34,314 nucleotides of DNA, taken from positions 1 through 34,314 of the forward strand of contig CAYNSI010000002.1 in NCBI GenBank assembly GCA_964399665.1. Reading direction: 5' to 3'. Positions 2,102 to 20,320 of this stretch are shown here, piece by piece. This DNA comes from an uncultured Enterobacterales bacterium (GTDB lineage: Bacteria > Pseudomonadota > Gammaproteobacteria > Enterobacterales > Succinivibrionaceae). Under the pieces are notes generated by a model. That model saw only the letters and a list, made by a program, of their open reading frames with translations. It did not search any database and had not been told where the DNA came from. Numbering within the stretch: position 1 is the stretch's first letter; every line of letters starts with the position of its first letter. Made by a program: the position numbers and the translations under genes.

Positions 2102-2124
2102 TAATTTACTCCTTATGCACTACG

Positions 2125-2655
2125 TTATTTAGCATCCTGCTCTTTGGAGACTAATGCTCCTGTCAAGGTAGGATCCATGAGGACTTTGATGTGTTCGATT
2201 GCCTTAAGAAAAAGGGCAATGGTCGACAGAACATAGCCGCCAAAGACCACAGAGTACATGATGATCATGGGGATACGCATGGCAGGCGATTTTTGCACTC
2301 TGCCCACTGGGAATAGATCGACGGCATAGGAGGCAATAAGGATACAAGCGATGGCTCCTACCACGGCGTGCATCAAAGAGAGACCTGCGCGGCCCTTGAC
2401 GGTCTTAAACAAAGTTTGGATGGCGTCAATCTTGATGAGCTTATCCTGCGTAACGGCGATGTTAATGCCGACGAGCACAATGAACACGAACAAGTAGCGG
2501 GACAGTTCTTCTGACCATGGCAGGGAATAGAAAATTACGTACCGCGTGAAAACCTGCACAAAGATCACGACCATCATGATCAAGAGAGCTGCCGAAATCA
2601 GGGCCAGCAACAGTTTTTGAAACGCGCGGAAAAATTTATCGATAGTAGAAAGCAT
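2125..2655 (-). CDS. dctQ: TRAP transporter small permease subunit (DctQ family), operon 1
   Basis: Four-TM small protein between dctP and dctM. Start moved from the TTG at 2694 to the ATG at 2655 (MLSTIDKF...), which has a GGAGGAA RBS. Confidence 0.85.
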   Translation of the reverse strand: MLSTIDKFFRAFQKLLLALISAALLIMMVVIFVQVFTRYVIFYSLPWSEELSRYLFVFIVLVGINIAVTQDKLIKIDAIQTLFKTVKGRAGLSLMHAVVGAIACILIASYAVDLFPVGRVQKSPAMRIPMIIMYSVVFGGYVLSTIALFLKAIEHIKVLMDPTLTGALVSKEQDAK

Positions 2656-2715
2656 ATTTCCTCCAATCACGAGGCTGTTACCCCGTGATCTCAAAGAAAA
2701 AACTGTGACGAAGAG

Positions 2716-3687
2716 TTATTGATTGTCTTGCACGATTTTGATGATGTCAGGATAGGCTTCAAACTGCTCTTTGAGGAAGTCTGCAGTCTTGACACGGATG
2801 CTTTCCTTATCTGGTAAGGTCAAAGTCATGCCCCTGGAAGTCAGGTTACCGACAGCCTCTTCAGCTTGTCTGCGCTGCTCCTCTCGCTGATATGCACCTG
2901 CTTCCTTGGCAGAATCGTAGACGATCTTTTGCTGCTCAGGGGTAAGACGATTCCAGGTTTGGGCGCTCATGATGATGAAGATGGCTGAGTAGTTGTGATC
3001 GGTCATGGCCAGATAGTCATTGACCTCGTTAATGTTGTTGCCGTCGAGCACTGAAATGGCATTCTCCACGCCGTCAATGGCCCTTTGCTGCAAAGCTGTG
3101 TATGCCTCACCCCATGACATAGCCACAGGGTCAGCGCCCAAAGCCTTCCAGAACCCCTGATGCACACGCGAATCCATAACGCGCAGTCTGATACCTGCGA
3201 TATCATCAGCATTATTGATGGGTCTGGTAGAATTGGAGAATTCGCGAAAACCTACTTCCCAAACGTCGATGTTGACCAGATTAATGCCTGCATTGTTGAT
3301 CTCCTGCGTGTAATATTCGGTCAGAGGGCCGTTGTTTGCAAAAAGCTTATCGGCGTGCTCATAGGAGTTGATGAGGTAGGGAATATCGATGGCCTCGATG
3401 TCGGGGATGAAGGTGGTCATGACCGACTGATTCACGGCACCGATATCCAAGGTGCCTAGCTGGCAGTTAACCGCATAGTCGCTTGCGCTGCCTACCGTGC
3501 CGTTGTTGAATACTTGAATCTGCACTTCCCCATTGGTTCTCTCATTGACCAGCTCTGCCCACTTGGCCAGCCCCTTGGCAACGGGCACGGTTTCAGGGGC
3601 GTCGTGGCCTGCTCTCATGACAACGGGACTTGCGCTTGCTGAAGCAACTGATAAAGCCAAGATGCATGCGGATAAAAAGATTTTCAT
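2716..3687 (-). CDS. dctP: TRAP transporter substrate-binding protein (DctP family), operon 1
   Basis: 323 aa. Signal peptide MKIFLSACILALSVASASA, DctP-like body, AGGAGA RBS. Confidence 0.9.
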   Translation of the reverse strand: MKIFLSACILALSVASASASPVVMRAGHDAPETVPVAKGLAKWAELVNERTNGEVQIQVFNNGTVGSASDYAVNCQLGTLDIGAVNQSVMTTFIPDIEAIDIPYLINSYEHADKLFANNGPLTEYYTQEINNAGINLVNIDVWEVGFREFSNSTRPINNADDIAGIRLRVMDSRVHQGFWKALGADPVAMSWGEAYTALQQRAIDGVENAISVLDGNNINEVNDYLAMTDHNYSAIFIIMSAQTWNRLTPEQQKIVYDSAKEAGAYQREEQRRQAEEAVGNLTSRGMTLTLPDKESIRVKTADFLKEQFEAYPDIIKIVQDNQ

Positions 3688-6957: not shown

Positions 6958-7383
6958 ATGAGCACTCAATGTTTTTACTGTGAAAATGGGGAAACCAGAA
7001 AAAATTTGATGATAGAGGTCTGCACCCTTAAAACTTCCACGGTGTATTTGAATAAGGATCAAAAACATCCGGGGCGTGTGGTGCTGATGTTTTACCGGCA
7101 TGCTGAGGAAGTCTGTGATCTGACCGCAGAAGAAAACAGCTCATTTTTTGCAGAACTATCCCTGGTGGCAGGAGCCGTAAAAAATCTTTACCACCCTGAC
7201 AAAATAAATTATGCCATTTATGGAGATCTGGTACCGCATCTTCATGTGCATATTGTCCCAAAATACAAGGACAAACTGCAGTGGGGAGGTCCTTTTGTAG
7301 ATTCGCCTGACTTGAAAGTCACTTTAAGTGACGATGACTATCAAAAAATGGTCACGCAGTTAAAACAGGAGATCCTCAAATAA
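6958..7383 (+). CDS. HIT-family (histidine triad) protein
   Basis: 141 aa. Histidine triad HLHVHIVPKY. N-terminal CFYC motif. GAGG RBS. 31 nt after dctM. Confidence 0.85.
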   Translation: MSTQCFYCENGETRKNLMIEVCTLKTSTVYLNKDQKHPGRVVLMFYRHAEEVCDLTAEENSSFFAELSLVAGAVKNLYHPDKINYAIYGDLVPHLHVHIVPKYKDKLQWGGPFVDSPDLKVTLSDDDYQKMVTQLKQEILK

Positions 7384-7423
7384 GTTTTGTGGTTATAACT
7401 TGACGGCTTAGGAAAGATTAACT

Positions 7424-8617
7424 ATGAAAAATTTCAATTTTTGCAGACCCACGGATTTTTACTTTGGACGTGGGGAAGAAAATAAAGTAGGAGAGATCTG
7501 CAGGAAACATGGTGCTGAAAAAATCCTGCTGCATTTTGGCGGTCAGTCGGCAATAAAATCAGGACTGCTTGCCAGGGTGGAAAAGTCCCTTACTGATGCC
7601 GGCGTAACTTTCATAAAATTAGGGGGAGTAAAACCCAATCCTACCGCTGATTTGGTTTATGAGGGCATTGATCTCTGCCGCAAAGAAAAGGTGCAGCTGA
7701 TCCTGGCAGTTGGAGGCGGATCTGTTATCGACAGTGCTAAGGCCATAGCCTTAGGCGTCCCCTATGAAGGTGATTTCTTTGACTTTTTTATGGGGAAAGA
7801 TACTCCGAAAAAATCCCTCCCAGTAGGAAGTATCCTGACCATTGCAGCTGCAGGATCTGAAGGATCCATGAGCTGCGTAATCCAAAAGGAAGTTAACGGC
7901 ATCATCAAGAAAAAAGGCTGCAATCATCTGCAGAATGTCTGTACATTTTCCATTTTAAATCCAGAGCTTACCTTCTCCCTGCCGCCTTATCAGACCGTCT
8001 GCGGCGCCTGCGATATCATGTGCCACGTAATGGAGCGGTATTTTTCCAATACTAAGGAAGTTAAGGTCACTGACGAACTTTGTGAAGGGGTTTTGCGTTC
8101 TGTGATTGCCATGCTGCCAAGGGTCATGAAAAATCCTGAGGATTATGAGGCAAGAGCAGCCATTATGTGGGCTTCAACCCTGGCTCATAACGATCTTTTG
8201 GGTCTTGACAGGGAGCAGGACTGGGGCAGCCACCGCATTGAGCATGAGCTGTCTGCCCTGTATGACTGTGCCCATGGAGCAGGCCTTGCCGTGGTGATGC
8301 CTGCCTGGATGGATTTTGTATGTACTCACGACCCCATGCGTTTTGCACAGTTTGCAGTAAACGTATTCGGATGTCAGATGAATTATGAAAATCCTGAAGA
8401 AACGGCACGAGCGGGCATTGCAGCCTTAAGAGCCTTCTGGGGAAGTGTCGGACTGCCTCTTAATTTTAAGGATTTGGGCATCAAAAAAGAGGACATCCCT
8501 GCCATTTTGCACAACCTGTCTTTGGGCAATCCTGATCATACCGAAGGACACTTTGTCGTTTTAAGCCTTAAGGATGTAGAAACCATCCTTACCATGGCAG
8601 CTGATTATAAGTCATGA
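7424..8617 (+). CDS. Iron-containing alcohol dehydrogenase, YqhD/BdhA-like (NADPH-dependent aldehyde/butanol reductase type)
   Basis: 397 aa. N-terminus MKNFNFCRPTDFYFGRG parallels E. coli YqhD MNNFNLHTPTRILFGKG. Also GGGSVIDSAK and metal-binding His motifs (HRIEHELS, AHGAGLA). Confidence 0.9.
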   Translation: MKNFNFCRPTDFYFGRGEENKVGEICRKHGAEKILLHFGGQSAIKSGLLARVEKSLTDAGVTFIKLGGVKPNPTADLVYEGIDLCRKEKVQLILAVGGGSVIDSAKAIALGVPYEGDFFDFFMGKDTPKKSLPVGSILTIAAAGSEGSMSCVIQKEVNGIIKKKGCNHLQNVCTFSILNPELTFSLPPYQTVCGACDIMCHVMERYFSNTKEVKVTDELCEGVLRSVIAMLPRVMKNPEDYEARAAIMWASTLAHNDLLGLDREQDWGSHRIEHELSALYDCAHGAGLAVVMPAWMDFVCTHDPMRFAQFAVNVFGCQMNYENPEETARAGIAALRAFWGSVGLPLNFKDLGIKKEDIPAILHNLSLGNPDHTEGHFVVLSLKDVETILTMAADYKS

Positions 8618-8681
8618 CAACAAACCGACAGGCAGGTCCCCACTACCATAGCAGGGGGCTTCCTGTCTTGAAACCTCCTTT

Positions 8682-8740
8682 AAAAAAGGCCCTGAAATCT
8701 TCCCGTGCGGCATTTGGCAGATTCAGGGCCTTTTGCTTTT
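8682..8740. terminator. Bidirectional Rho-independent terminator between the convergent ADH and trbL genes
   Basis: Stem GGCCCTGAAATCT (8688-8700) pairs with AGATTCAGGGCC (8719-8730). A-run on the left, TTTTGCTTTT on the right. The 18-nt loop is rather large. Confidence 0.6.
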
Positions 8741-8752
8741 GCTAAAAATTCC

Positions 8753-9712
8753 TCACTTAAGCTTTCTTGCTATATAGGCTAAGGTTGCAGCTACAGGAGC
8801 CCAGGCAATTGCTGCTGCCTGATTAAAACCGCTCCTGCCTTCCATAACTGCACCGCCGCCTCCTGCAACCAATCCTGCAGCCAGGGCAGGCAGCGATCTT
8901 GTCATCGCAAAAAACAACATCACCACAAACAGCATCAAAAGCATGTCATTTAGGGTATAGGAGCCGCTGTAATTGACCACCCAGGTGTGGACATTGGTGA
9001 TAGTACTCATGCCGCTGGTGCACACTAAAATCATCACCATAAGCTGCATTCCCAATGACAGGAGCAGCCTTAGGTAATTAACCGCAAAGGGTCTGGTATA
9101 GACAAAGGCGCCAAATCCTAATACCACAATTCCTGCCACGCACAGAATATAGGCTGACAAATAAAGAATGGCATAATTGATAACGCAAAGAAAAAGCAGT
9201 ATCGACACAAATACCTGCAGCAGCAAAAACAGCAGATCATCGGCAAAACTGCCGCCTCCTTTGACGCGGGATAAGTCATTATTAAGTGACATGACCTTAT
9301 TTAAAAGATCCACGGGGGTAATGGGATTGCTGCCTTCGGGAAGTTCCATTAGGGACTCAATAACCGCAATGCCTATTTCAGAACCGTGGGACAGGAGAAA
9401 CTCAAAGATGCCTATGATGACCACCATTTGTACAAATGCCCCGAAGAAGGTCTGTATACTGCCGTCTTCCTTAAAGATAAGCTCCACCCCCTTTAAGGCA
9501 AGACCAATAAGGCACAGACCCCAAAAAAGGCGGGAGGCTGCCGTGGTCAGGCGGCTTTCCATGGTTCTTGCTTCACTGACAAAGCTTTGAAAGGAATATC
9601 TGAGCATTTGCTCTACATCATCGGCAAAATAACTGGTTTCAGCCATTGCCGCTGTGCTCAGCACACCTAAGCAGATGATAAGTACCGCGCCTGTGACAGT
9701 CCAAAATCTCAT
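8753..9712 (-). CDS. trbL: T4SS inner-membrane channel protein TrbL/VirB6 family
   Basis: 319 aa. Signal-like N-terminus followed by multiple TM segments. Last gene of the trb operon. Its ATG overlaps the trbJ stop (ATGA). Confidence 0.75.
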   Translation of the reverse strand: MRFWTVTGAVLIICLGVLSTAAMAETSYFADDVEQMLRYSFQSFVSEARTMESRLTTAASRLFWGLCLIGLALKGVELIFKEDGSIQTFFGAFVQMVVIIGIFEFLLSHGSEIGIAVIESLMELPEGSNPITPVDLLNKVMSLNNDLSRVKGGGSFADDLLFLLLQVFVSILLFLCVINYAILYLSAYILCVAGIVVLGFGAFVYTRPFAVNYLRLLLSLGMQLMVMILVCTSGMSTITNVHTWVVNYSGSYTLNDMLLMLFVVMLFFAMTRSLPALAAGLVAGGGGAVMEGRSGFNQAAAIAWAPVAATLAYIARKLK

Positions 9713-10533
9713 AGACTCCCGTCCTTCCAGGCCTGCAGATCAAAGCTGAAACTCTGCTGATAGGGTACTTCATCCTTGTAGGAAGCTTCCTGCCTTTCTG
9801 CTTTCTGCAGATTATCGTTGGAAGTTCTTGCCATCTTGGTGCCCAAAAGAGTAATGAGCTGATTTACCTGGGTATTCAAGTCCATTATCGAATTTAGGGT
9901 CATGGCATTTATTTTGGCAAGATTATCCAGGGTATCTCCTATGCCTTCTGAGCTTTGGGACTTGTTCATCATGGATTTGATGAAATCGGCATCCTGCTTC
10001 ATTTTAGACTGCATGGCATCAGCATTCTGCATGGCGGTGCGTGAAGTCGCAATGGCATTGTTGTCCAGGGTCTTAAGGTAGGAGGCAAAATCGCATCTGC
10101 CGCTTGAAAAACATGTAGCCCAGGCCGATGATTTTTGAAAGGATGACAGATAAGATGACAGCGAGCCTGCTTCTGACCAGAGATCTGCTGCTGCACTTAC
10201 CAAAGTTAAGGTGCGCTCGGTAACCGACTTGGTGTCATCCCACAAGGTAAGATTCGGCATTGAGGCATTCTTTTTGGCAAGGCTGAAGCGATCCTGATTA
10301 AGCGAATAATTATTCTTAATATTGGTAAGTTGATTTATCTGGGTATTGTTATCTTCAAGCCACTGCTGCATGGAAAGGATCCGCATCGTAAGATTTTCAG
10401 CAAGATTGGAGCCGTCAATAACAGGAAGCCCTGCCGATGCCTCCTGCACAGGTAATATTAAGGCCAAAGAGGCTGCCAAAACTGCCGCAGCATATCTTCC
10501 GGTATTCTTGATATTTTTAAGTGCTAACAACAT
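9709..10533 (-). CDS. trbJ: T4SS TrbJ/VirB5-like periplasmic/minor pilus protein
   Basis: 274 aa. Signal peptide then GLPVIDGSNLAENL, followed by Q/N-rich coiled-coil sequence typical of TrbJ. AAGGAGGAG RBS. Sits between trbI and trbL as in IncP Tra2. Confidence 0.7.
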   Translation of the reverse strand: MLLALKNIKNTGRYAAAVLAASLALILPVQEASAGLPVIDGSNLAENLTMRILSMQQWLEDNNTQINQLTNIKNNYSLNQDRFSLAKKNASMPNLTLWDDTKSVTERTLTLVSAAADLWSEAGSLSSYLSSFQKSSAWATCFSSGRCDFASYLKTLDNNAIATSRTAMQNADAMQSKMKQDADFIKSMMNKSQSSEGIGDTLDNLAKINAMTLNSIMDLNTQVNQLITLLGTKMARTSNDNLQKAERQEASYKDEVPYQQSFSFDLQAWKDGSL

Positions 10534-10551
10534 TAATGCTCCTCCTTGACT

Positions 10552-11838
10552 TTAAGAGAAAGGATCCTGATAAGGGCCCTTAAAGCGTATATCTTTTGCC
10601 ACCACCACATTGAACAGGTACCCGGGCTCCACTTTGAGGGTCGGGGAGATATTCATGTTCTGCTCGATGACGCGGGTTAACACGTTGCCTAAACTTACCC
10701 CAAGCCCCTGGGATAAAGCCTGGGAGGCTGAAACACCGTCGCTGTCATATCTGTTGCTGTCGGTTGCAAGAGTAACGGATGCTGTGATCCCGCCTAAAAT
10801 GACGGCATTGGTCAACAGCCTGAACATATGGTTGTCAACATCAGCATCAAAACCTGAATACCCGTCCATGGCAGCCCCGGGCATAGATCCTAAGGTAAGG
10901 GCAGATCCATCAGGATAAATGACCCTGTTAAATCCGAGCATGACACGCTCCTGGCCTATTTTGGGAGAAGAGCCGTACTGGCCTATAAGACGGGAGCCTT
11001 TGGGAATTAGGAGGTGATTGCCCATAGCGGAATCATAGACATTCTCAATGACCTGGGCTATGACAAGCCCCGGAAGATCCGAGTTAATTCCGCTTACCAA
11101 CACCGCGGGGATCACAGCCCCCATCCTGATCATAAAGGGAGTATCAGCAGCCTCAACAGTGTAAGGATGGGCAAAATCACTGCCCTGATCTAATGAATTG
11201 TAGGCAGACAAAGTCTTGGAGCTTGATACAAAAGAGCCGCCGCTTCCTGAACCAAAGCCTGAAGAAGTATCGGAAAGATTGTTTAAATTCGCAACGGCCG
11301 AGCGCAGCTGACTTTGCTGATAAGATCTAAAATCTCCTGAGGCTCTGTTGTCAGGATCTAAAGTTTCGCTCCTTTTGTCATAAGAATTTGCCTCCACCAG
11401 GGTCAATGACACCCTCGAACCTGACTCCAGGGCCCTGAAAAAGGCAGTTTCCCGGTTGCGCGATAGTCTCTTGCGGTATTCCTCAAGAGGATCGCTTTTA
11501 TCATCAAGTCTTTGATATATTTCAAAGGCCTTATCGTTATCAGACGGGGGCTCTTCAATTACAGGCATGGTAATTAGCGGTTCAGGGATCTCAAATGCTG
11601 CCTCAATGTTCTCCTCTTTGACAGGTTTTAAGCTGCGCTGCATTCTTTCAATTTCATCGGCAGCCTTTCCCAATCCCTCATCATAGGTGACGGCCTCTTT
11701 TCTATCCTTATTATCAGAGGCTCTGCTGTCTACGGCAAACCAGGCAAGTGCTACCAGGATCACAGAGAAAATAATGATTAATATTGCAGGGGTGCGCGTT
11801 AACCTGCCTCGTAGCGGCCGGAAATTTCTAGACTCCAT
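10552..11838 (-). CDS. trbI: T4SS TrbI/VirB10 family protein
   Basis: 428 aa. Single N-terminal TM, acidic/Pro-containing linker and a conserved C-terminal VirB10 domain (GYSGFDADVDNHMFRLL...). GGGGAGG RBS. Overlaps the upstream lipoprotein gene by 11 nt. Confidence 0.85.
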   Translation of the reverse strand: MESRNFRPLRGRLTRTPAILIIIFSVILVALAWFAVDSRASDNKDRKEAVTYDEGLGKAADEIERMQRSLKPVKEENIEAAFEIPEPLITMPVIEEPPSDNDKAFEIYQRLDDKSDPLEEYRKRLSRNRETAFFRALESGSRVSLTLVEANSYDKRSETLDPDNRASGDFRSYQQSQLRSAVANLNNLSDTSSGFGSGSGGSFVSSSKTLSAYNSLDQGSDFAHPYTVEAADTPFMIRMGAVIPAVLVSGINSDLPGLVIAQVIENVYDSAMGNHLLIPKGSRLIGQYGSSPKIGQERVMLGFNRVIYPDGSALTLGSMPGAAMDGYSGFDADVDNHMFRLLTNAVILGGITASVTLATDSNRYDSDGVSASQALSQGLGVSLGNVLTRVIEQNMNISPTLKVEPGYLFNVVVAKDIRFKGPYQDPFS

Positions 11839-12316
11839 CTTTTACCTCCCCTGACATTAAGGATATAGGAGACAATGAAGTACCTGAGATCCTAAAAGTC
11901 TGCGCCAAATGCAGTTTTACGGTGTCTATTTGCGCCAGGATTTCTGAAGATTGAAGACTGTCAACGGATACGGTAATAGTATCCCCGCTGCACTGTTCAA
12001 TACTTTGGCATACCATAGCCCCCTTTGCCTTAAGGGAACTTTCAAGCTCTGTTTTCAAAAGATCTTCTTTGGGATCTTCCTTTTTGAAAGTTTCCAAAAG
12101 AAAGGTGGTTTTAGGCAGAGTATAGTAATGCTCCAAAGCCTCAGTAAAATTGGCAGCTGCATTCTCATAGGAGATCTGCTCTACCCTCTCTTCACTGCCA
12201 AAGCCGGCCTGAAGTTTGTCAAAGGCCGTACATGAACTTAAAACAATGACGCCAAAGGCAGCCCAAACTGTAGGAATGATAAATTTCATGCTGTTTTTCC
12301 CAAAAGGTAATGTCAT
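11828..12316 (-). CDS. Putative T4SS lipoprotein in the TrbH / VirB7 position
   Basis: 162 aa. Lipobox VLSSC after a hydrophobic signal. Size and position match IncP TrbH. I recognise no family-level sequence motif. Its ATG overlaps the trbG stop (TAATG); an alternative start is the ATG at 12289. Confidence 0.5.
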   Translation of the reverse strand: MTLPFGKNSMKFIIPTVWAAFGVIVLSSCTAFDKLQAGFGSEERVEQISYENAAANFTEALEHYYTLPKTTFLLETFKKEDPKEDLLKTELESSLKAKGAMVCQSIEQCSGDTITVSVDSLQSSEILAQIDTVKLHLAQTFRISGTSLSPISLMSGEVKDGV

Positions 12317-13236
12317 TACGCCTTCTCCCTGATTATGGAAACTTCAAGGCTGTCAGAGCCGCTGCCTAAGATAAGTTTGGCTCTGTCAAACAGGCTGTCG
12401 ACAATAAAACGCCGCCCCTGAATGCGGTAATTGGCAATTGAGGTCTTGTCAGAACCAAAAAATGAAGTGTCGTGCACTATCACAATGGCAGGCATTCTGC
12501 CTCCTGGCAGATCTTCAGGCATCTCCACTATGGTGTGTTTGCCGTCATTAAATACCCGAACCGGCATCAAGGCCTTGTCGCCTTTTAATTCATAGGCAAA
12601 GTCAAGCTTGTCTACGGTAACTTCGGTACCTGCAATGGTTTTTTTGTCCTGTTCTTGACGCTTTAAATCAGCAAGCTTTGCAAGTCTTTCCTTGGCAAGC
12701 CCGGGGTAGGCAAAGCGCACCTGGGGCATGAATTCATCTTCGGTGGACTTTAAAGACATGTGATAGACCCTTTTGTCAGTAGTAACTATCAAAGAAGTCC
12801 TAAGTCCGCTGTCAAGAGGCTTTACGATAAGATGCTGCACACTGTCAGAACCGCTTCCTGAGATAGCAGCGTCTACAAACCAGCGGGCCGTGTCCCCCAA
12901 CTGAACCGAACTTATGATTTCCCCAGGCTCCATGGCAATATCGGTAAGTTCAAGTACTGCACATACGATGACAGGACGTGAAGCTCCATGCGTAAAAATC
13001 ACCTCCCCTGGCCCTGTGACCTGACCCCTGCCGCCCTGCTTTAAGGTTCTTTGATCCAGGGTTAACAGATCCAGCAGGGCCTTTTTGTCAGCTGCGCTTA
13101 AGTAGTTTTCTGATGACTGTCCCTTAAAATCCTCAAGGGCACTGTCTGCATAAGTTTCCGGTAAATACACGGCTGATGCAGCGACAACTGACACTGCAAA
13201 ACCAAAATTTGCCAGCATATAGGCTTTATTAGACAT
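12316..13236 (-). CDS. trbG: T4SS TrbG/VirB9 (CagX-like) outer-membrane core protein
   Basis: 306 aa. Signal peptide. C-terminal motif LMPVRVFNDGKHTIVEMP is typical of TrbG/VirB9. Overlaps trbF by 8 nt. Confidence 0.8.
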   Translation of the reverse strand: MSNKAYMLANFGFAVSVVAASAVYLPETYADSALEDFKGQSSENYLSAADKKALLDLLTLDQRTLKQGGRGQVTGPGEVIFTHGASRPVIVCAVLELTDIAMEPGEIISSVQLGDTARWFVDAAISGSGSDSVQHLIVKPLDSGLRTSLIVTTDKRVYHMSLKSTEDEFMPQVRFAYPGLAKERLAKLADLKRQEQDKKTIAGTEVTVDKLDFAYELKGDKALMPVRVFNDGKHTIVEMPEDLPGGRMPAIVIVHDTSFFGSDKTSIANYRIQGRRFIVDSLFDRAKLILGSGSDSLEVSIIREKA

Positions 13237-13888
13237 TGGTAATTACCTCTGAAATCTCAAAATCGGTGACATAAATGGATAAAGGGTTTAAGAGGAGCTT
13301 TTGGGCATCCGGATTGGTAATGTTCTCTATCTGATAGCTGACAAGAGCCCTTTGTTTTTTATCGACACTCCGCCCCCCGGTTATGGTGCGCTCATTCCAG
13401 TCTATCTGCATAGCCTGCCCCTGCTGGGCAATAACATTGGCAATCTGCACCTCGATGCGCTTTTTCTGCCCTTCATCAAAAGGGTTGACCTTTTTATAAA
13501 AGGCATCAAGTTTTTGCTGTGAGGAAGAGCCGTCCTTGACATGGGAATAAACTTTTAAGATGGCCTGCTTTTGAATCATCTGATCTGAGCTTATCTGTCT
13601 AAAATCCTTGATAAATCCTGCCAATGTGGCAGCAATTACCTCCATGGGAACTTCAGGGCTTGGGGCAAGAGTGCCTCCTGCTAAAACCACGCCGTGAGAG
13701 TCAACGGTAACAAGGTAGGGAATAATGTGGGTGCGCTCGACCTGACGAATATAGGCTGATAAGGAAAAGAAACCAAATGATGCCCCCATAAAAGCGAAGG
13801 CAACCAGCAAAGCTCTGCCTTTGAGGACCCTTGATGCCAATGACACAGCCTCAAGCCCTCTGATACTTCTTACAATCTTCTTTGCCAT
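13229..13888 (-). CDS. trbF: T4SS TrbF/VirB8 family protein
   Basis: 219-aa bitopic protein (N-terminal TM plus periplasmic domain). Position after trbE. Its ATG overlaps the trbE stop (TGATG). Confidence 0.75.
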   Translation of the reverse strand: MAKKIVRSIRGLEAVSLASRVLKGRALLVAFAFMGASFGFFSLSAYIRQVERTHIIPYLVTVDSHGVVLAGGTLAPSPEVPMEVIAATLAGFIKDFRQISSDQMIQKQAILKVYSHVKDGSSSQQKLDAFYKKVNPFDEGQKKRIEVQIANVIAQQGQAMQIDWNERTITGGRSVDKKQRALVSYQIENITNPDAQKLLLNPLSIYVTDFEISEVITNV

Positions 13889-16812
13889 CAGGCAGCCTCC
13901 CTTTTCTTGGTGTCAGGGCAGGAGCCTTCAAAGCTGCTGCCTTGTTGAGTTTTGGGACTGTTATAAAAACCGTCCCTGCCGTCTTGTTGCAAACTAGTAT
14001 CAAGCGGCAGGGAACAGGTTTTACGAGCTGTGGGTGATATCTTGTCCAAACTTGTGGCAGCTGCCTTGAGGTTAGAAGATGCCCCGTCCTCTTTTATGCT
14101 GCGATCTTTTATTGAGGATTTAGGTTCATCACAATTTAAGAGAGTGTCATCCTTATTTAAGGCAGCAGGATTGTTAAAAGAACATCTCTTATCTGCTGTA
14201 ATGCTGCCAGATTCTGTCTTTGGCAGCTTAAAAGCCCCGGATGATGCGAAGCTGTTTTCAGATAATAAGTCTTGAGCATCAGGATTAGGTCCCCCGGGAT
14301 TTTCCTGGTGTTCTGACATTAAGGAGCTGTCAGGGCACAGCTTTTCACGGCGTAAATGAAGCCCCAGATCAGGACCGTGTTCTGCGTAAAGACTGTCTAT
14401 CTTGTCTACAATATGATCTCCTGCAAAAGATAACAGCTTAAGCTCCTGGGGCAGCATATTTAACTCAAAAAGGCTGCTGTGGGGGCCTTTTTTAAGAAAG
14501 TATTCCTTCTTAGGCTCAAGCCTTGAAATAATCTCAATCTGCTTTAGATTAAGACCAAGCTTTTCATAAATGGGGGCAAGGATCTCCCCTCCTGCGTCGA
14601 AGTTTGGCAGGAAGATCCTGGTTTTGGCACAGTCCAAAAAGGCCTCAAAATACGTAGTGCGGGAAAGATCGGTCAGCGACTGGGTGGCAAGCACCACAAA
14701 GACATTGTGCTTTCTTAAAGTCTTAAACCATTTGATAAGCTCGGAGGCAAAATAAGGCTCTTCGAGCATAAGCCAGGCCTCGTCTACAATAATGGCCTTG
14801 GGTTTGCCGTCAAAACTTTTTTCAAGCAGTCTAAAAAGGTGCTTTAAAACCGGGATCATAAAACGCTTTGAGGACTCAAAAAGACTTGAACACTCAAATA
14901 CGGTAAGAGGATTTTTAAAATCAGGATTTTTAAAGCCGTCTAATAGAGAGCCGCTGTTTGACTTTACGGTATAGCCTTCAATGGCCTCCTTCAAATGTCT
15001 TGAGGACAAAAGCATGTGCAGATCTGACAAAGAGCGCTTTTGTCCAGGTCGTAAGGATAGAAGCTTCAAAGCCTCAGTAAGCTCTAAGCGCAGTGACGCG
15101 TTAAGCTCGACACTGCAAAGTCTTGCCATGGTTTCTATGTACTCTAAGGCAAACTCCAAATCCTCCGTGGTATCGATGTACTCTAAGGGACAGAAAGAGG
15201 CTTTGTTATTGTCAAAGCGCAAATGCTCACCCTCAAGGGCCCGGGTTAAGGCATAGAATGACCAGCCCTTGTCAAAGGCAAATACCTTGGCATCTTGATA
15301 GCGGAGAAAATTGAGCATAATTTCTCCCAAAAGTACGGATTTGCCGGCCCCTGGCGGTCCAATTACTATGGTATTTCCCAAGTCCCGATCATGAAGATTA
15401 AGATAAAAAAGCCCCCTGCCGCTGCCGCTGTGACATTGGATCAAAGGAGTATTATTTCTGCCTATCATAGGATGGGGACAAATACTTTCCCCAATCCACG
15501 CCTGTGATAAGGGCAGCAAATCCGTTAATACCTCATGATTTACCATGGGACGGCGGACATTTTCCTCAACATGCCCTGGTAAAGAACCCAAAAAGGCCTC
15601 TATGGCATTTACGGTTTCCAGACGACAGGCAAAACCCAAATCTTCTATCCTGCGTACTATGCTGCAGGAGATCTTCTCCAAATTGGCAAAATTCTCATCA
15701 CTGATGCATACCGTGGCACAGTAGGAGCCGAACATGGTATCCCTGGCATCAAGGCGTGCTCTTTCAGCATCCACCTCCTGCACTTTTTCAACGGCATTTA
15801 AATTAAGCCTTCCGTTGAGGTTAAAAAGCTGGGCGATAAGTCCGCGCTGGCGCTGCAGCCAGAACCTGCGGTAACGCTCAAGCAAAAAGGCACTTTTAAA
15901 ATCGTCAAAGGTAAGATACCTGGTGGTAAAACGGTATTCACAGGAAAGAGAAGCCAGGGCGTTTAACACCAAAAAGTTTAATTTTGCCGGGATCCCCTCA
16001 ATGGCTATCACCGCGCAGTACATTCTGCCTATTTTGGGAGTAAAAGACACCTCCAAATCCTGAGCGGCAATTACGGCATCAAGATAGACGGGATATTCGG
16101 GGCAGACAATCTTCTGGGAAATCCCGCTGTAACAGCGGTAAAGATAGGATAAACCCTCGTGACAGCGCTCGCCGTTTTCTCCCGTGATAAAGCCCAAAGG
16201 CCGTAACTTCATTACCAAGGAGAGGGTATCTGCTATCGTGCGGCACTCCCCTTCAAAGTTTTCAATCAAAGCTGCGCTTTCTTTGATGCCTGACTCAAAG
16301 CTGTAACTGCCCTCCTTTTCAGTCATGATCCTGGTCAATGCCCTTACTGCTGTCTTTTCCCCAAGTTTGGTTAAAGTCAGGTAAAAGCGGGTTTTAAATA
16401 CCGGTTCTTCCTTTAAAAGAGCAGCTTTTTGATTGTCAAAGGAAGCGGTGAGAGATCCTGGATCAGAGGCTTTGGGAAGATAGTCTCTGACAATTGACCG
16501 CAGGGCATCAACATGGACGGCATAATTGCCGCCTAACTTTAAAACGGCTCTTTTAACCATAGTACGCACCTGCAAAAGTCTTGATTCATCCGCTGATCCC
16601 AAATCATCCAGAATGAGCTCATAAATCTTCATAAGACCGCCGTTTTTCAGGACGATTACCTCTTCTGATGCCAATGTGGCGTAATCGAGCAGATCAGCTG
16701 CCGCCCTCTGGGTAACTTTAGGTTTTGCCTTATGGTTAAAAACCACCAATACCGTTACTGCCGCCAGTAAGGATATAAAGGACAAAATAAGAGCAATTTG
16801 AGATAAATACAT
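13888..16812 (-). CDS. trbE: T4SS ATPase TrbE/VirB4 with a ~159-aa non-canonical C-terminal tail
   Basis: 974 aa. N-terminal TM. Walker A GPPGAGKS, Walker B IIVDEAW. CagE/TrbE/VirB4-like throughout residues 1 to about 815. AGGAGAG RBS. Confidence 0.9.
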   Translation of the reverse strand: MYLSQIALILSFISLLAAVTVLVVFNHKAKPKVTQRAAADLLDYATLASEEVIVLKNGGLMKIYELILDDLGSADESRLLQVRTMVKRAVLKLGGNYAVHVDALRSIVRDYLPKASDPGSLTASFDNQKAALLKEEPVFKTRFYLTLTKLGEKTAVRALTRIMTEKEGSYSFESGIKESAALIENFEGECRTIADTLSLVMKLRPLGFITGENGERCHEGLSYLYRCYSGISQKIVCPEYPVYLDAVIAAQDLEVSFTPKIGRMYCAVIAIEGIPAKLNFLVLNALASLSCEYRFTTRYLTFDDFKSAFLLERYRRFWLQRQRGLIAQLFNLNGRLNLNAVEKVQEVDAERARLDARDTMFGSYCATVCISDENFANLEKISCSIVRRIEDLGFACRLETVNAIEAFLGSLPGHVEENVRRPMVNHEVLTDLLPLSQAWIGESICPHPMIGRNNTPLIQCHSGSGRGLFYLNLHDRDLGNTIVIGPPGAGKSVLLGEIMLNFLRYQDAKVFAFDKGWSFYALTRALEGEHLRFDNNKASFCPLEYIDTTEDLEFALEYIETMARLCSVELNASLRLELTEALKLLSLRPGQKRSLSDLHMLLSSRHLKEAIEGYTVKSNSGSLLDGFKNPDFKNPLTVFECSSLFESSKRFMIPVLKHLFRLLEKSFDGKPKAIIVDEAWLMLEEPYFASELIKWFKTLRKHNVFVVLATQSLTDLSRTTYFEAFLDCAKTRIFLPNFDAGGEILAPIYEKLGLNLKQIEIISRLEPKKEYFLKKGPHSSLFELNMLPQELKLLSFAGDHIVDKIDSLYAEHGPDLGLHLRREKLCPDSSLMSEHQENPGGPNPDAQDLLSENSFASSGAFKLPKTESGSITADKRCSFNNPAALNKDDTLLNCDEPKSSIKDRSIKEDGASSNLKAAATSLDKISPTARKTCSLPLDTSLQQDGRDGFYNSPKTQQGSSFEGSCPDTKKREAA

Positions 16813-16820
16813 ACGCTCTC

Positions 16821-17120
16821 CTAGCTGCGGTATTTTTTGAAGGGGACCGAATACAAGGTAGCCTGCGCTCTGTAAAAGCTGCGGTATTTAAGCTGCCTTA
16901 CATATACGTGCCTTAACTTAAGATCCCGGCGCGCCATCATCCTCAAGGCTGTCATACCCGTGATAAAAGCCCCAAGACTAATAAAGCCTATGAGAAGATC
17001 CGCAGAACTTACCGCAAGACCGACACAAAAAAATGCCAAGGTCATGGAAAGTTCCCGATCGCACCCCAAAAAGGTTTGCGGCTCCAGCACAGCCTTGCAT
17101 ACGATAGTTTCAGGCAGCAT
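16821..17120 (-). CDS. trbD: T4SS TrbD/VirB3 family small membrane protein
   Basis: About 99 aa with a central hydrophobic hairpin, between trbC and trbE. I prefer the ATG at 17120; the ORF track uses the TTG at 17126, which overlaps the trbC stop. Confidence 0.7.
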   Translation of the reverse strand: MLPETIVCKAVLEPQTFLGCDRELSMTLAFFCVGLAVSSADLLIGFISLGAFITGMTALRMMARRDLKLRHVYVRQLKYRSFYRAQATLYSVPFKKYRS

Positions 17121-17122
17121 AA

Positions 17123-17830
17123 TCAAACTTCAAGCTCTTTAATGGATTTAAGCTGACGGACTGAGGATTTGTAGGAGCTCCGATAAACCCCAGGAGTGCC
17201 TGCCACATCATGTTCCAGATCCTCTGCCCATAGGTCTTTTTTATCAGCACGTTGCGGCAGGTAATTTGCAAATTCAGCAAAGCTTTGGGCTTCATACCCA
17301 AACATTGGGTTCTTGATACTTAAAATTCTGCCTTGAAGCCTGTTTGACCCGCTTTTAGGATAAGAGTAGGCCAAAGCCTGATACTCATCTTCAAAATCCT
17401 GATAACTGAGCCTTTGATGCAGGGTTCTTGTAAACCTAAGATCAGAGCCGACCACATTAGGAGCAAAATTCTTAGGATAGGAACTTTCGGTCTGCGCTGT
17501 CAGGCCGATGCTGGCGCCGTTGAAAAACCTCGTCATCAGTGAGTTTGCTCCTATCAAAAGAGTCATTACCAGCACTATGAAGATAAGAGACTGCATAAAA
17601 CGGCCTATTTCCCCTCCTGATAAGATCAGGGTAGCCCCGCAGGTTACAATCCCTATCATGGCAACGGAAAAAGCCACGGGACCTGTTAGGGATTGCTGCA
17701 AAGTCTGCAGCCAGCTTTCATAAGGAAGCGTGCCGCTGCTGCTTTCAGAGGCAAAAGCCGTACTAAACAGCATTACAGCCCCCGTCAACAAAAACAGAGT
17801 CAAAATCTGAAATTTTTTGGTTGCGCTCAT
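17123..17830 (-). CDS. trbC: TrbC/VirB2-type pilin precursor with a ~130-aa C-terminal extension
   Basis: Start set to the ATG at 17830 (MSATKKFQ..., GGAGG RBS). Signal peptide ends AFA. Two hydrophobic helices (PVAFSVAMIGIVTCGATLIL and SLIFIVLVMTLLIG) resemble TrbC. A long hydrophilic tail follows. Confidence 0.65.
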   Translation of the reverse strand: MSATKKFQILTLFLLTGAVMLFSTAFASESSSGTLPYESWLQTLQQSLTGPVAFSVAMIGIVTCGATLILSGGEIGRFMQSLIFIVLVMTLLIGANSLMTRFFNGASIGLTAQTESSYPKNFAPNVVGSDLRFTRTLHQRLSYQDFEDEYQALAYSYPKSGSNRLQGRILSIKNPMFGYEAQSFAEFANYLPQRADKKDLWAEDLEHDVAGTPGVYRSSYKSSVRQLKSIKELEV

Positions 17831-17925
17831 AAAACCTCCACAAATTAACTTAAGTTTCCAATCAGGCATAAAATGCCAGGACTTCTTTATTAATCATGCA
17901 AACTGTGCTGCCACCTCCTTACCCT

Positions 17926-17981
17926 GAACTTCATCAGGGTTCAAACTTTCATCAATCTGCATCAGGGTTTAAACTTTCATC
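17926..17981. repeat. 28-bp tandem duplication (2 units) spanning the trbB stop codon
   Basis: Unit 17926-17953 versus unit 17954-17981. The 22-nt core CATCAGGGTT(C/T)AAACTTTCATC matches at 21/22 positions; 24/28 overall. Confidence 0.8.
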
Positions 17982-18953
17982 TACAAACACCTGCCTTATA
18001 AGGAAAGTGTCTTTTGCAAAACCTTTAACCTCACCTATTACCGCAACTTTCCTGGAAGCACCTCTTTTAAGCTGCACAATCACATCCATAGCCTCAGCCA
18101 AGGTAGGTTCTATCAGTCTTGGGGCATTAGGATGCCTGGAGATCAAAAGCGTAAGACGCTTTAAAGCCTGGGAAATGGAACCTGCGTGCACGGTACACAG
18201 CCCGCCGCTGTGCCCAGTTGACAAGGCATCTACCAAATCAAGTGCCTCAGCCCCTCTTACTTCGCCTACTACAATGCGATCAGGTCTAAGTCTTAGGGCA
18301 GAGCGCAGCAGCACTGCCATGTCAGCACCATCAGAGGTGTAAAGCTGCACGGTGTTTTCAAGATCAATCTTAATTTCAGGAGTATCTTCAATGGTCAGAA
18401 CCCGCTCCTTTGGAGATACTGCCCCAAGTTCATTGATAAGCGCCTTTACCAAAGTTGTTTTGCCGGTTCCCGTACCTCCTGAAACTACTATGGTGCGCTT
18501 TTGGGCCACCGCCTCATGAAGGTAGGCAAAGCTTTTGTCACAAAGCATGCCGCCTTGGGCAAGCTGCTCTAAGCTTATAAAACTGACACTGTGCTTTCTT
18601 ATCGAAAAAATGGGGGCACGTACCAAGGGAGGCAGCAAGGCCTCAAAACGGGCCCCGTTACCCGGCACCTCACCCGAAAAAATAGGACTTAGGCTTTTAA
18701 GCTCCCGGTTGGCAACGGATGCTATTGTTCTTACCACAGCCTCAGCATCACCTGAAGGCAGAGTTCCCAGCTTTACTAATCCTCCGCCTTTAAATTCAGC
18801 AAATAAGGAACCATCGGGATTGAGCATAATTTCGGTGATATCATCATCGATTAGGGCATTGCGAATAAGCGGACCGAAACTGCTTTGAAACCTCTCATAG
18901 GCCCTGGTCTCGTAGGCATTAAGGGCTTTGAAAGAATTGTTATGTTCAGTCAC
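17952..18953 (-). CDS. trbB: T4SS ATPase TrbB/VirB11 family
   Basis: 333 aa. GTG start with GGGAG RBS. Walker A GGTGTGKTT, Asp box LTIEDTPE, His box GHSGGLCTVHA. Confidence 0.9.
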   Translation of the reverse strand: MTEHNNSFKALNAYETRAYERFQSSFGPLIRNALIDDDITEIMLNPDGSLFAEFKGGGLVKLGTLPSGDAEAVVRTIASVANRELKSLSPIFSGEVPGNGARFEALLPPLVRAPIFSIRKHSVSFISLEQLAQGGMLCDKSFAYLHEAVAQKRTIVVSGGTGTGKTTLVKALINELGAVSPKERVLTIEDTPEIKIDLENTVQLYTSDGADMAVLLRSALRLRPDRIVVGEVRGAEALDLVDALSTGHSGGLCTVHAGSISQALKRLTLLISRHPNAPRLIEPTLAEAMDVIVQLKRGASRKVAVIGEVKGFAKDTFLIRQVFVDESLNPDAD

Positions 18954-19399
18954 AGTAAAACTCCCGTAAAAATTTTTCTTAAAGTTTAGAAAGAGAGGTC
19001 TTAATGAAGATGCAAAACTGTGGGGTTAAAGGCCTTGTGAAAGAAATAAGCAAATGAGATTGCTTGAAATAAAAGCAAATTAATTTTTCAACTTTTTTGC
19101 AATTTAAGGATAATGCACCAAATCAGGGAGTATAAGCGGTGACACCTTGGCTGAGCACAGAAAGCTGGCAAACTAAAAATCCTGCTGGATTAGCTTTTTA
19201 GCACAGCTTTGTCCTGCATTAAAAAAGATAAAATGTCTCAGGCTTAAAAACTTAAGATGACATAAAGGATCTTGTAGGTAGTTCCTGGGTGCACAAAGTG
19301 CTTGTTACAGCAAACAAGCTTAAAAGCTGCAGGCTGTCGTAAATTAAGAGGATGGTTTGGTAGACAGTGAATATTTTTCCATCATGAGAAGGTAATTGC
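18954..19399. promoter_or_regulatory. Divergent control region between the trb operon and the AraC-family regulator gene
   Basis: 446-bp non-coding gap upstream of both trbB (-) and the AraC gene (+). AAGCAAAT occurs twice (19048 and 19073). No promoter hexamers confidently assigned. Confidence 0.4.
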
Positions 19400-20320
19400 A
19401 TGAGTTTTAATGTAGAAAACAGTTCAATTCTTGAGACACTTAAGGAGAAGATCCTCAAGCTTATGCCTCATCCTGCAGCTGATTTGACGGCAGCGATGAA
19501 GACCAACACCGGACTTGAGATCCTGCACATTGATACAAGATTGAAACCTGTCAACTGTTTTTTGGAACCTAAAGCTGTCTTTGTTATCCAGGGCGCAAAA
19601 CGCATAACAATAGGAGGCTATGACCATGAATGCCGTGAAGGAAGCTCCATGGTAACGGCAGTAGGCCTGCCTGTATCATGTAGGATCCTCAATGCCTCAT
19701 TTAACAAACCTTTCCTGTCTTTAGCAGTAAGCTTTGATCCTGTAATACTCAAGCAGTGCCTGAAAGACCTTAAAGATTGCGATACTTCCAAAAACTTAGG
19801 CGATATAAGAGCCATATCCTTTGCTTCCCAAACCCCGCAGCTTTGCGAGATCCTGCACAGAATGCTCTCCCTTGCCGACAACAGCACTGATGCTGCCCTC
19901 CTTGCACCGCTTTTGCACCACGAGCTTTACCTTTGTCTTCTAAAAAGCCCTCATGGCTGCCATATGCAAGAGCTCCTGTCAGAAGGTTTGGGAGCAGGTC
20001 AAATTGCCAAGGCAGTCAACCTGCTAAGGCACAATGTTCATCAACAGCTTAATGTCGAAGATCTGGCCCAGAGCGTACACATGGCCCCGTCAACTTTTTA
20101 CAGAAATTTTAAAAAGATAACCTGCCTAAGCCCGCTGCAATTTCATAAGTATTTTAGATTATGTGAGGCAAAGCAGCTCATGCTCTCAGGTATGAATGCA
20201 ACAAGAGCCTGCTTCAGCGTAGGCTATGCAAGCTGCCAGCAGTTTTCCCGTGACTACAAGCAGTATTTTGGCAATCCCCCTGCAAAGGATATTAAAGAAG
20301 AACTTTTAAAGCCTAAATAA
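19400..20320 (+). CDS. AraC-family transcriptional regulator with an N-terminal cupin-like (AraC_N type, YqhC-like) sensor domain
   Basis: 306 aa. C-terminal double HTH (LAQSVHMAPSTFYRNFKK... GYASCQQFSRDYKQYFG). The N-terminal ~190 aa resemble the AraC_N ligand domain; this is from memory and needs an HMM check. Confidence 0.85.
   Translation: MSFNVENSSILETLKEKILKLMPHPAADLTAAMKTNTGLEILHIDTRLKPVNCFLEPKAVFVIQGAKRITIGGYDHECREGSSMVTAVGLPVSCRILNASFNKPFLSLAVSFDPVILKQCLKDLKDCDTSKNLGDIRAISFASQTPQLCEILHRMLSLADNSTDAALLAPLLHHELYLCLLKSPHGCHMQELLSEGLGAGQIAKAVNLLRHNVHQQLNVEDLAQSVHMAPSTFYRNFKKITCLSPLQFHKYFRLCEAKQLMLSGMNATRACFSVGYASCQQFSRDYKQYFGNPPAKDIKEELLKPK

Follow-up and report, generated by a model that had tools for sequence, protein, structure and literature searches.

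Contig CAYNSI010000002.1 (assembly GCA_964399665.1), from an uncultured bacterium of the Succinivibrionaceae (Enterobacterales), carries an operon of ten trb genes for a type IV secretion system (T4SS) related to the Tra2 region of IncP plasmids. The window, by which we mean the whole stretch of DNA analysed, is the entire contig of 34,314 bp. From the sequence comparisons given below, we put at about 0.7 the probability that the operon is a host-domesticated IncP/Trb-type T4SS core, captured ancestrally and now kept as a vertically inherited chromosomal operon under purifying selection. The ten open reading frames (ORFs) follow one another on the minus strand from position 18953 to 8753, and the ORF table shows all frames intact. 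In operon order, followed by the upstream region, they are:

17952..18953, minus strand: trbB, VirB11-type traffic ATPase, 333 aa, GTG start (TIGR02782 TrbB_P, E = 2e-91, above cut-off; PF00437)
17123..17869, minus strand: trbC, IncP-type pilin precursor (VirB2), 248 aa (PF04956, E = 7e-15; NF010467, E = 6e-31)
16821..17126, minus strand: trbD, VirB3 homologue, 101 aa, TTG start (NF010395, E = 3e-17, above cut-off; PF05101)
13888..16812, minus strand: trbE, VirB4 ATPase, 974 aa (NF010466, E = 5e-166 over aa 25-815)
13229..13888, minus strand: trbF, VirB8 homologue, 219 aa (PF04335, E = 8e-25; TrbF NCBIfam models)
12316..13236, minus strand: trbG, VirB9 homologue, 306 aa (TIGR02775 TrbG_Ti, E = 8e-68, above cut-off; PF03524)
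11828..12316, minus strand: TrbH-like lipoprotein at the VirB7 position, 162 aa (LSSC lipobox; hhalign to IncP TrbH)
10552..11838, minus strand: trbI, VirB10 homologue, 428 aa (PF03743, E = 8e-55; NF010405 IncP-type TrbI, E = 3e-62)
9709..10533, minus strand: trbJ, VirB5-type pilus-associated protein, 274 aa, signal peptide (NF010452, E = 4e-14, and TIGR02780, E = 1e-13, both below cut-offs)
8753..9712, minus strand: trbL, VirB6 homologue, 319 aa (TIGR02783 TrbL_P, E = 5e-36; PF04610)
18954..19399: AT-rich non-coding region of 446 bp between trbB and a divergent AraC-family gene, presumed from its position only to be the operon promoter region

The order B-C-D-E-F-G-H-I-J-L is that of the RP4/IncP Tra2 region and is also found on the IncP plasmid pMHAD031 and on a Haemophilus plasmid. 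Nine of the ten proteins were assigned to Trb/VirB families by Pfam and NCBIfam. The TrbH-like ORF had no direct match in either database and was assigned by profile-profile comparison only: its family, built from the window and the counterparts in five related loci, aligned with IncP TrbH at a hhalign probability of 93.6% (E = 2e-7, 45 columns), and the homologue in Succinatimonas hippei gave a weak PF07283 match. The preliminary description of this DNA, made without database searches, had already reported ten head-to-tail trb genes between 8753 and 18953, and these assignments bear it out. The junctions that it gave were all correct. These are overlaps of 8 nt at trbF/trbG, 11 nt at trbH/trbI and 4 nt (ATGA) at trbJ/trbL, and a single shared nucleotide at trbE/trbF (TGATG) and trbG/trbH (TAATG). 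To them we add a 4-nt overlap at trbC/trbD, where the TTG start lies over the trbC stop. The ATPase motifs that it had seen are likewise intact, with Walker A (GGTGTGKTT), Walker B (RIVVGEVRG) and a His box in TrbB, and Walker A (GPPGAGKS) and Walker B (IIVDEAW) in TrbE. A consensus scan for promoters and terminators gave counts close to the shuffled expectation, with no informative sigma-70 site on the operon strand upstream of trbB.

Each of the ten products has a pairwise homologue among the Trb proteins of pMHAD031, with identities of 54% for TrbC, 52% for the TrbI C-terminus, 44% for TrbB, 41% for TrbG and 35% for TrbE; TrbJ is 25% identical to IncP TrbJ (E = 2e-11). The operon thus shares with the Tra2 core of IncP-1 plasmids (RP4/RK2) its ten genes and their order, and every product has its homologue there. 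The pilin also has the same 78-aa core, which begins with Ser, and the same type of processing site, Gly-Ala-x-Ile-x. Unlike the IncP-1 region, the operon of the window is chromosomal, vertically inherited and host-like in composition, and neither Tra1 genes (TraG, TraI, TraF, TraJ/K/L/M) nor trbK/M/N/P were found within the searched flanks. Individual proteins differ as well. TrbL has 319 aa here versus 538-610 aa in IncP and is missing the long C-terminal extension, the C-terminal tail of TrbC has 126 aa versus 24-27 aa, and TrbE reaches no more than about 36% identity with a plasmid copy, the best match being drawn from 72,556 plasmids.

Two of the genes show local peculiarities. The conserved body of TrbE reaches to about aa 820, and about 450 bp (13891-14346) then encode a low-complexity tail rich in Ser, Pro, Asp and Lys (aa ~823-974). 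This tail has no Pfam match and is missing in the closest relative (TrbE of 829 aa), and other genera have TrbE extensions of other sizes. At the 3′ end of trbB a near-perfect tandem duplication of 28 nt covers the stop codon (17929-17981); copy 1 closes the frame (…DESLNPDAD*), and copy 2, in another frame, reads DESLNPDEVQGKEV…. The duplication suggests a frame shift that removed a short C-terminal tail, and TrbB nonetheless equals its relatives in length.

The genes that would make such an operon a conjugation system were not found next to it. Searches for a type IV coupling protein (T4CP), a relaxase and TraF covered the contig and about 10 kb of flank at the related loci described below. 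Family annotation and tblastn revealed no T4CP of the TraG/VirD4 family in either. No window ORF belongs to a relaxase family, and two MOBP TraI queries gave no tblastn match. Using queries from two IncP-like plasmids, a tblastn of the window with TraG, TraI, TraF, TrbK/M/N/P, TraJ/K/L/M, topoisomerase III and a primase-like protein was also without match. As for entry exclusion, TrbK had no match, and trbJ and trbL overlap by 4 nt with no gene between them. The contig ORFs include no integrase, rep or par genes, no tRNA was found on the contig, a Rfam scan returned no family, and attachment site (att)-like direct or inverted repeats around the block were chance-level short matches only. A PADLOC scan of the unannotated small proteins yielded nothing relevant. 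The absence of VirD4/TraG, relaxase, TraF, TrbK, integrase and tRNA that the preliminary description had read from the window is thus seen again by family annotation, tblastn and tRNA scan.

The surroundings of the operon are those of a chromosome. By family assignment, the other 20 main ORFs are all ordinary chromosomal genes, in agreement with the core-gene flanks described earlier. They comprise two tripartite ATP-independent periplasmic (TRAP) transport systems, a HIT protein, an iron-containing alcohol dehydrogenase (Fe-ADH), the AraC-family regulator, metG, a MATE transporter, gntK (gluconokinase), a NodT-type outer-membrane factor, rmlD, pepT, macA, macB, rlmI, a gloB-like hydrolase of the metallo-beta-lactamase fold and ycgL; the contig starts with the N-terminus of a partial IclR-type regulator that runs off the edge. 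The GC content is flat (0.465 in the operon versus 0.471 in the flanks), and GC at third codon positions (GC3) is 0.48 versus 0.49. Relative synonymous codon usage of the operon correlates with that of the metG-side flank at r = 0.92. The dinucleotide distance delta* between operon and metG flank is 17; the two halves of that flank lie further from each other (36). The earlier impression of no GC shift, taken from a few lines of sequence, therefore holds for the whole operon.

The same operon was found in about 25 loci from at least 20 species and at least four named genera, all of the Succinivibrionaceae; its carriers are Succinivibrio, Succinatimonas, Anaerobiospirillum, Avisuccinivibrio and unnamed metagenome-assembled genomes (MAGs). 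Among 5.8 billion sequences, the closest TrbE proteins were 66% and 58% identical and the others at most 51%, the named ones being from Succinatimonas. A scan of one genome per GTDB species with two peptide patterns, which speaks for carriers and not for absence in other genera, gave 19 loci, 19 of 19 in Succinivibrionaceae. Succinivibrio forms a more distant branch (TrbE identity of 37-39%). Every related locus of sufficient length has the order B-C-D-E-F-G-(H)-I-J-L with intact frames, and trbJ is kept at the same position in all of them. The neighbours are housekeeping genes that vary by genus (TamB-TamA-CpoB, LpxK-KdsB, dapF-xerC-uvrD, pyrBI, GH31, fumarase and metG). By Pfam annotation and tblastn, no T4CP, relaxase, S26/TraF peptidase or other Tra1/Tra2 accessory gene lies within about 10 kb in any locus. 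Three ORFs upstream of the Anaerobiospirillum operons were considered and set aside: those of ~630 aa and >870 aa, candidates for a T4CP or relaxase by size, are TamA and TamB, and one of 260 aa is CpoB-like and no transfer gene.

In a neighbour-joining tree of TrbE, all loci and three metagenomic sequences form one clade (100/100 bootstraps), apart from the TrbE of plasmids and integrative and conjugative elements (ICEs) of Alpha-, Beta- and Gammaproteobacteria, and the internal branches follow genera; one of the metagenomic sequences, P0047, has the same orphan context. The phylogenetic placement proposed in the preliminary description, made here with TrbE, sets this family apart from the plasmid and ICE copies. 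Purifying selection acts on all ten genes. In six locus pairs, synonymous sites are near or at saturation (proportion of synonymous differences, pS, 0.5-0.9), the proportion of nonsynonymous differences (pN) is 0.06-0.36 for nine genes and up to 0.48 for the TrbH-like gene, and the ratio of nonsynonymous to synonymous substitution rates (dN/dS) is 0.03-0.26 for every gene wherever it could be computed. The metG-trbB junction of the window recurs in its closest relative, MAG BRZ_RI__bin27 (L007), and so does the MATE gene that lies beyond, with identities of 78% for the methionyl-tRNA synthetase, 74% for the MATE protein and 66% for TrbE. Such a pattern is expected of genes that have co-diverged at a fixed site on the chromosome. 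Of the interval from the alcohol dehydrogenase to metG, whose comparison was suggested earlier, the metG-trbB side is thus shared with this relative. An apparent Fe-ADH/AraC synteny with Avisuccinivibrio was rejected, as the proteins are just 34-36% identical and are paralogues. The view of the operon as an old, vertically inherited and host-domesticated machine is well supported by these sequence data.

These data also bear on the idea that the operon is a decaying remnant of an integrated plasmid or ICE, or that the contig is a plasmid or a chimeric assembly. MOBless T4SS loci, i.e. those without a relaxase, can be degrading elements (PMC4027160), a prophage interrupts trbB in one related strain, and the 28-nt duplication lies at the trbB stop codon. 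Against this, none of the ten frames is broken in the window or in any related locus of sufficient length, dN/dS lies well under 1, the composition is host-like, essential single-copy genes such as metG lie on the same contig, and the metG-trbB junction recurs in an independent MAG of another species. The remnant or artefact explanation is largely refuted and has hardly any probability left. Two possibilities that the preliminary description had named as fatal to its reading are thereby rejected: that the contig is a plasmid or ICE, by metG and the like on the contig, the host-like composition and the shared metG junction; and that the genes decay in relatives, by the intact frames and the dN/dS values, except for the one strain with the prophage. 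In that Succinivibrio-like strain (L031, ~7100-8880), an integrase-bearing prophage lies inside trbB at about codon 187, with terminase, portal and lysozyme genes upstream; another strain with an identical TrbE (L032, 2566-3537) has an intact trbB, and the former is a natural operon knockout.

The pilin indicates that the system is not self-contained. In an alignment with its IncP counterpart, the TrbC of the window has a signal peptide at aa 1-40 with the signal-peptidase site AFA|S. Its predicted mature core, Ser41-Gly118 (17516-17749), has exactly 78 aa as in IncP. The core is followed by the processing site G|ASIG, versus G|AEIA in IncP; the tetrapeptide ASIG is encoded at 17504-17515, and a C-terminal tail of 126 aa at 17126-17503. 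The tail is hypervariable, not alignable between species and without Pfam match. Across the clade, TrbC is near-invariant from LPYESWL to FFNGA-x-I, and directly after this point it becomes unalignable and variable in length. Few products of the operon are as conserved as the mature pilin core (47-81% identity across genera over the aligned pilin region). In RP4, LepB cuts the signal peptide, an unknown host protease trims 27 C-terminal residues, and TraF takes off four further residues and joins Ser1 to Gly78 to give a cyclic pilin (PMC13434634). The 126-aa extension would most simply be a discarded propeptide. For the TraF-type (S26) peptidase, two TraF queries gave no tblastn match in the window or in about 25 related loci, and the annotated neighbours include no S26 protein. 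A TraF-type site that is conserved while no TraF lies near the operon in any locus means that the system needs at least one gene elsewhere, and a TraF-type peptidase encoded elsewhere in the genome is implied by the sequence. A different arrangement is seen in an Anaerobiospirillum MAG (L018, 4592-6303), where two trbC genes stand in tandem, each with the entire conserved core and a tail of its own, which recalls the pilin amplification of Bartonella Trw.

This dependence in trans gives some room to an alternative in which the operon supplies the mating-pair formation of a functional DNA-transfer system, and the T4CP, relaxase, oriT and TraF are located elsewhere. These could be chromosomal, with Tra1 and Tra2 split as in RP4, or could belong to mobilisable plasmids or islands that have their own relaxase and T4CP and borrow the channel. 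The kept TraF-type site with no TraF within 10 kb anywhere implies at least one Tra1-type function in trans, and IncP plasmids carry Tra1 and Tra2 as separate blocks. Elements that are mobilised by a T4SS acting in trans are abundant (PMC4027160), and of this genome our search covered the 34-kb contig. However, some 25 loci have no nearby T4CP or relaxase, the entry-exclusion gene trbK is missing, no integrase or att-like repeats were found, and over deep divergence the operon has stayed on the chromosome, inherited vertically and similar to the host in composition, which is atypical of the conjugation modules of mobile elements. We regard a split conjugation system as unlikely, and as the alternative to be taken most seriously; if true, the operon would be an ordinary case. 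Of the earlier verdict "domesticated, non-conjugative", the first word is supported by the ~25 loci, the monophyly, the selection, the composition and the metG junction, and the second is not established, as the TraF-type site implies a partner elsewhere.

Under the favoured explanation, a domesticated T4SS core, an ancestor of the Succinivibrionaceae would have acquired the Tra2-core operon trbB-C-D-E-F-G-H-I-J-L. The Tra1 half (T4CP TraG, relaxase and oriT) and the accessory genes trbK/M/N/O/P, of which TrbK/M/N/P were searched for, would have been lost or never kept, and the operon would since have been inherited vertically on the chromosome under purifying selection. By homology, TrbB and TrbE would be the ATPases, TrbD, TrbF and TrbL the inner-membrane platform, TrbG, the TrbH-like protein and TrbI the outer-membrane core, and TrbC and TrbJ the pilus. 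Maturation of the TrbC precursor would remove the signal peptide of 40 aa and the C-terminal tail, which differs from species to species, and the 78-aa core would probably be cyclised at Ser41/Gly118 by a TraF-type peptidase encoded elsewhere. With no coupling protein for cytoplasmic cargo, the pilus or channel itself may act on neighbouring cells. Its most likely action would be a contact-dependent, cargo-independent antagonism in a dense gut community, with sister cells shielded by their own TrbJ.

This use is ranked first because the same trb set of RP4, together with traF, kills without cargo. In RP4, traF and trbBCDEFGHIJL are the essential genes for T4SS assembly, and their reconstitution in E. 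coli without TraG, relaxase and oriT caused contact-dependent, cargo-independent killing of Gram-negative neighbours with membrane damage (PMC11045733). TrbM enhances this killing, TrbO or TrbP abolish it, and TrbJ or TrbK in the target protect (PMC11045733). The window holds exactly the trbBCDEFGHIJL of this set. TrbK/M/N/P, and with them the inhibitory TrbP, were not found by tblastn, and the required traF was not found on the contig. The reconstituted killer (traF and trbBCDEFGHIJKL, PMC11045733) and the operon of the window have in common the trb genes, including TrbJ. The former works without T4CP, relaxase, oriT, TrbO and TrbP; of these, T4CP, relaxase and TrbP were looked for in the window and not found. 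They differ in that the former is engineered, overexpressed in E. coli and includes traF, whereas the latter is known from genes alone and has no traF or trbM on its contig. The VirB5 and VirB11 equivalents are kept and the pilin maturation site is intact, so a pilus or contact function appears to be under selection. By analogy with RP4, contact-dependent antagonism with TrbJ-based kin protection may be the single most likely use of the operon, an assignment that we hold tentatively; the antagonism option of the preliminary description has thereby gained an experimental precedent for the same gene set, from which the step to this operon is one of analogy. Somewhat more doubtful is a wider proposal, that the operon is a host-owned channel with one of two uses. 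It may be a natural contact weapon that needs no cargo, equivalent in the wild to the engineered RP4 killer, or it may be a public mating channel, through which hitch-hiking elements with a relaxase and T4CP, or the chromosome itself, may transfer DNA.

Several points weigh against a domesticated antagonistic machine. TrbM, the enhancer of RP4 killing, has no match in the window, and RP4 killing was seen with overexpression in E. coli and has never been demonstrated as a selected natural function. High conservation of the pilin core fits any pilus-dependent role equally well. The prophage in trbB of one Succinivibrio-like strain shows that the operon is dispensable at least there. That the pilin peptidase must lie elsewhere raises the prior for other partners elsewhere, e.g. 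a T4CP, and with evidence confined to this contig, a T4CP, relaxase or TraF may be present in the rest of the genome. A literature search found no functional, transcript or protein evidence for the operon.

Known T4SSs that work without a VirD4 coupling protein offer other roles, namely export of toxin from the periplasm (Ptl), secretion of effectors partly via the periplasm (Brucella VirB), DNA uptake (ComB) and adhesion (Bartonella Trw) (PMC12857230). The Trw system is conjugation-derived, chromosomal and VirD4-less, occurs within a host-associated lineage and forms adhesive pili (PMC12857230). In the same way, the operon of the window could be kept only for a surface pilus of cyclic TrbC with TrbJ at the tip, translocation having been abandoned, and would attach to mucus, host cells or other bacteria. 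Its composition is that of Trw, which retains equivalents of VirB2-B11 including VirB5 and VirB11 and has no VirD4 (PMC12857230). All motifs for the maturation of the pilin are conserved, Anaerobiospirillum has been found associated with the mucosa in chickens (PMC13040750), and one member of this genus has the two tandem trbC genes mentioned above. On the other hand, Trw derives from IncW R388 and the operon of the window from IncP Trb. The pilus genes of Trw are amplified and variable in sequence, whereas trbC and trbJ are single-copy here and the pilin core is highly conserved. The variable tail of TrbC lies beyond the predicted cleavage site, and no adhesin domain was found. A purely adhesive pilus is therefore considered rather improbable, less so than the roles discussed next.

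Ptl, Brucella VirB and ComB have no T4CP or relaxase and serve the host cell (PMC12857230); the operon resembles them in that neither gene was found on its contig. A two-step export of proteins, in which periplasmic substrates delivered by Sec are taken by the outer-membrane core without a T4CP, is established for Ptl and Brucella VirB (PMC12857230), and extra unannotated ORFs in or after the operon of Anaerobiospirillum (c11, c33 and c34) are possible substrates or accessory parts. The operon of the window has no linked substrate genes; no candidate was found in the window or in the closest relatives, and the neighbours are housekeeping genes that differ between genera. Ptl has no VirB5 and is co-transcribed with its toxin substrate, whereas TrbJ is kept here. 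Brucella VirB has VirB1 and VirB12, and all three systems have the VirB-type gene order. Two-step export thus seems improbable. Still less credit is due to a DNA-uptake machine like Helicobacter ComB, which is a VirD4-less T4SS that imports DNA (PMC12857230; PMC3548315): ComB is without VirB11 and VirB5, both of which are kept here, and no locus has linked competence genes.

Taken as a class, the operon fits the chromosomal MOBless or VirD4-less kind of T4SS, and its proteins are of known Trb families. Orphan T4SSs are already an established category and common in genome surveys. In one survey, 646 of 1623 T4SSs had no nearby relaxase; such systems are often chromosomal and without integrase, and were read as repeated exaptations (PMC4027160, PMC3548315; also PMC3158045). 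The operon of the window is likewise a chromosomal system of the MPF_T type without a nearby relaxase or integrase. The MOBless category of Guglielmini et al. is defined by loss of the relaxase and its members usually still have a T4CP, whereas here the T4CP is also missing locally. What marks a self-transmissible element, i.e. T4CP, relaxase, an integrase or maintenance module, foreign composition and entry exclusion, was absent from the contig. Of what marks a domesticated VirD4-less system, a chromosomal, lineage-wide and vertical inheritance under purifying selection was present; the channel genes are complete, and no T4CP or relaxase was found on the contig or near any related locus.

To our knowledge, the characterised VirD4-less T4SSs number only four (Ptl, Brucella VirB, ComB and Bartonella Trw), all of them in pathogens and all of VirB or Trw ancestry. 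Hundreds of chromosomal MOBless T4SSs are known as database entries only. Our literature search found no described T4SS of the Succinivibrionaceae. Nor did it find a description of the clade itself, of its occurrence in several genera of anaerobes from gut and rumen, of the reduction to the exact RP4 assembly core or of the conserved cyclic-pilin site with hypervariable propeptides. The operon probably serves the host rather than a plasmid. If it is a host-owned channel, it would add a fifth independent lineage to the VirD4-less T4SSs, the first to descend from Trb and the first to come from commensal anaerobes, with a cyclic pilin matured in trans by a chromosomal peptidase. The clade, being old, intact, family-wide and limited to the RP4 core, is a clean natural case for the role of such machines in commensals. 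Among the hosts, Succinatimonas hippei YIT 12066 and the Anaerobiospirillum NML isolates are cultivable. They would allow a direct test of whether the cargo-independent killing of engineered RP4 occurs in nature and a test of IncP-type cyclic pilin maturation without linked TraF.

Variation around the operon was observed among the related loci. A pair of polytopic membrane proteins (c0/c1; ~220-260 aa and 450-465 aa, no Pfam family) adjoins the operon in at least seven species and is not in the window. It lies downstream and co-directional (after trbL in L003/L015; 9201-11307 in L014) or upstream and divergent, being upstream of trbB in L010, L012 and L013, and may reflect old synteny or a functional link. 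Six Anaerobiospirillum loci (L017, L020, L021, L022, L025 and L030) have expanded operons with a low-complexity, lipoprotein-like ORF of 400-700 aa at the TrbH position. Three of them (L017, L025 and L030) have an extra ORF of 440-530 aa between trbI and trbJ, and two (L017 and L025) one of 550-590 aa after trbL; the extra ORFs are all without a Pfam family. In these expanded operons the ORFs for TrbF and TrbG are seemingly much longer, the ORF calls using the longest possible start. In the Succinivibrio branch (L028/L029 and L031/L032), no gene was called between trbG and trbI, and the TrbH-like lipoprotein seems to be missing or fused there.

In the window, the AraC-family regulator (AraC_N and HTH_18 domains; 19400-20320) lies between metG and trbB, divergent from the operon, and is a candidate local regulator of it. 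The closest relative (L007) has metG directly beside trbB without this gene, which indicates a lineage-specific insertion. The left flank is the compositional outlier of the window, with delta* of 70-81 versus 17-36. Its first TRAP operon (dctM, Q and P; minus strand, 815-3687) has GC3 values of 0.60-0.67 versus 0.39-0.56 elsewhere on the contig. The left flank, rather than the trb operon, looks like a more recent arrival or a differently expressed unit. On the other side of the contig (24663-31685), macA-macB and the NodT-family factor are encoded on the same strand and are split by pepT and rmlD, an unusual break in an efflux cluster.

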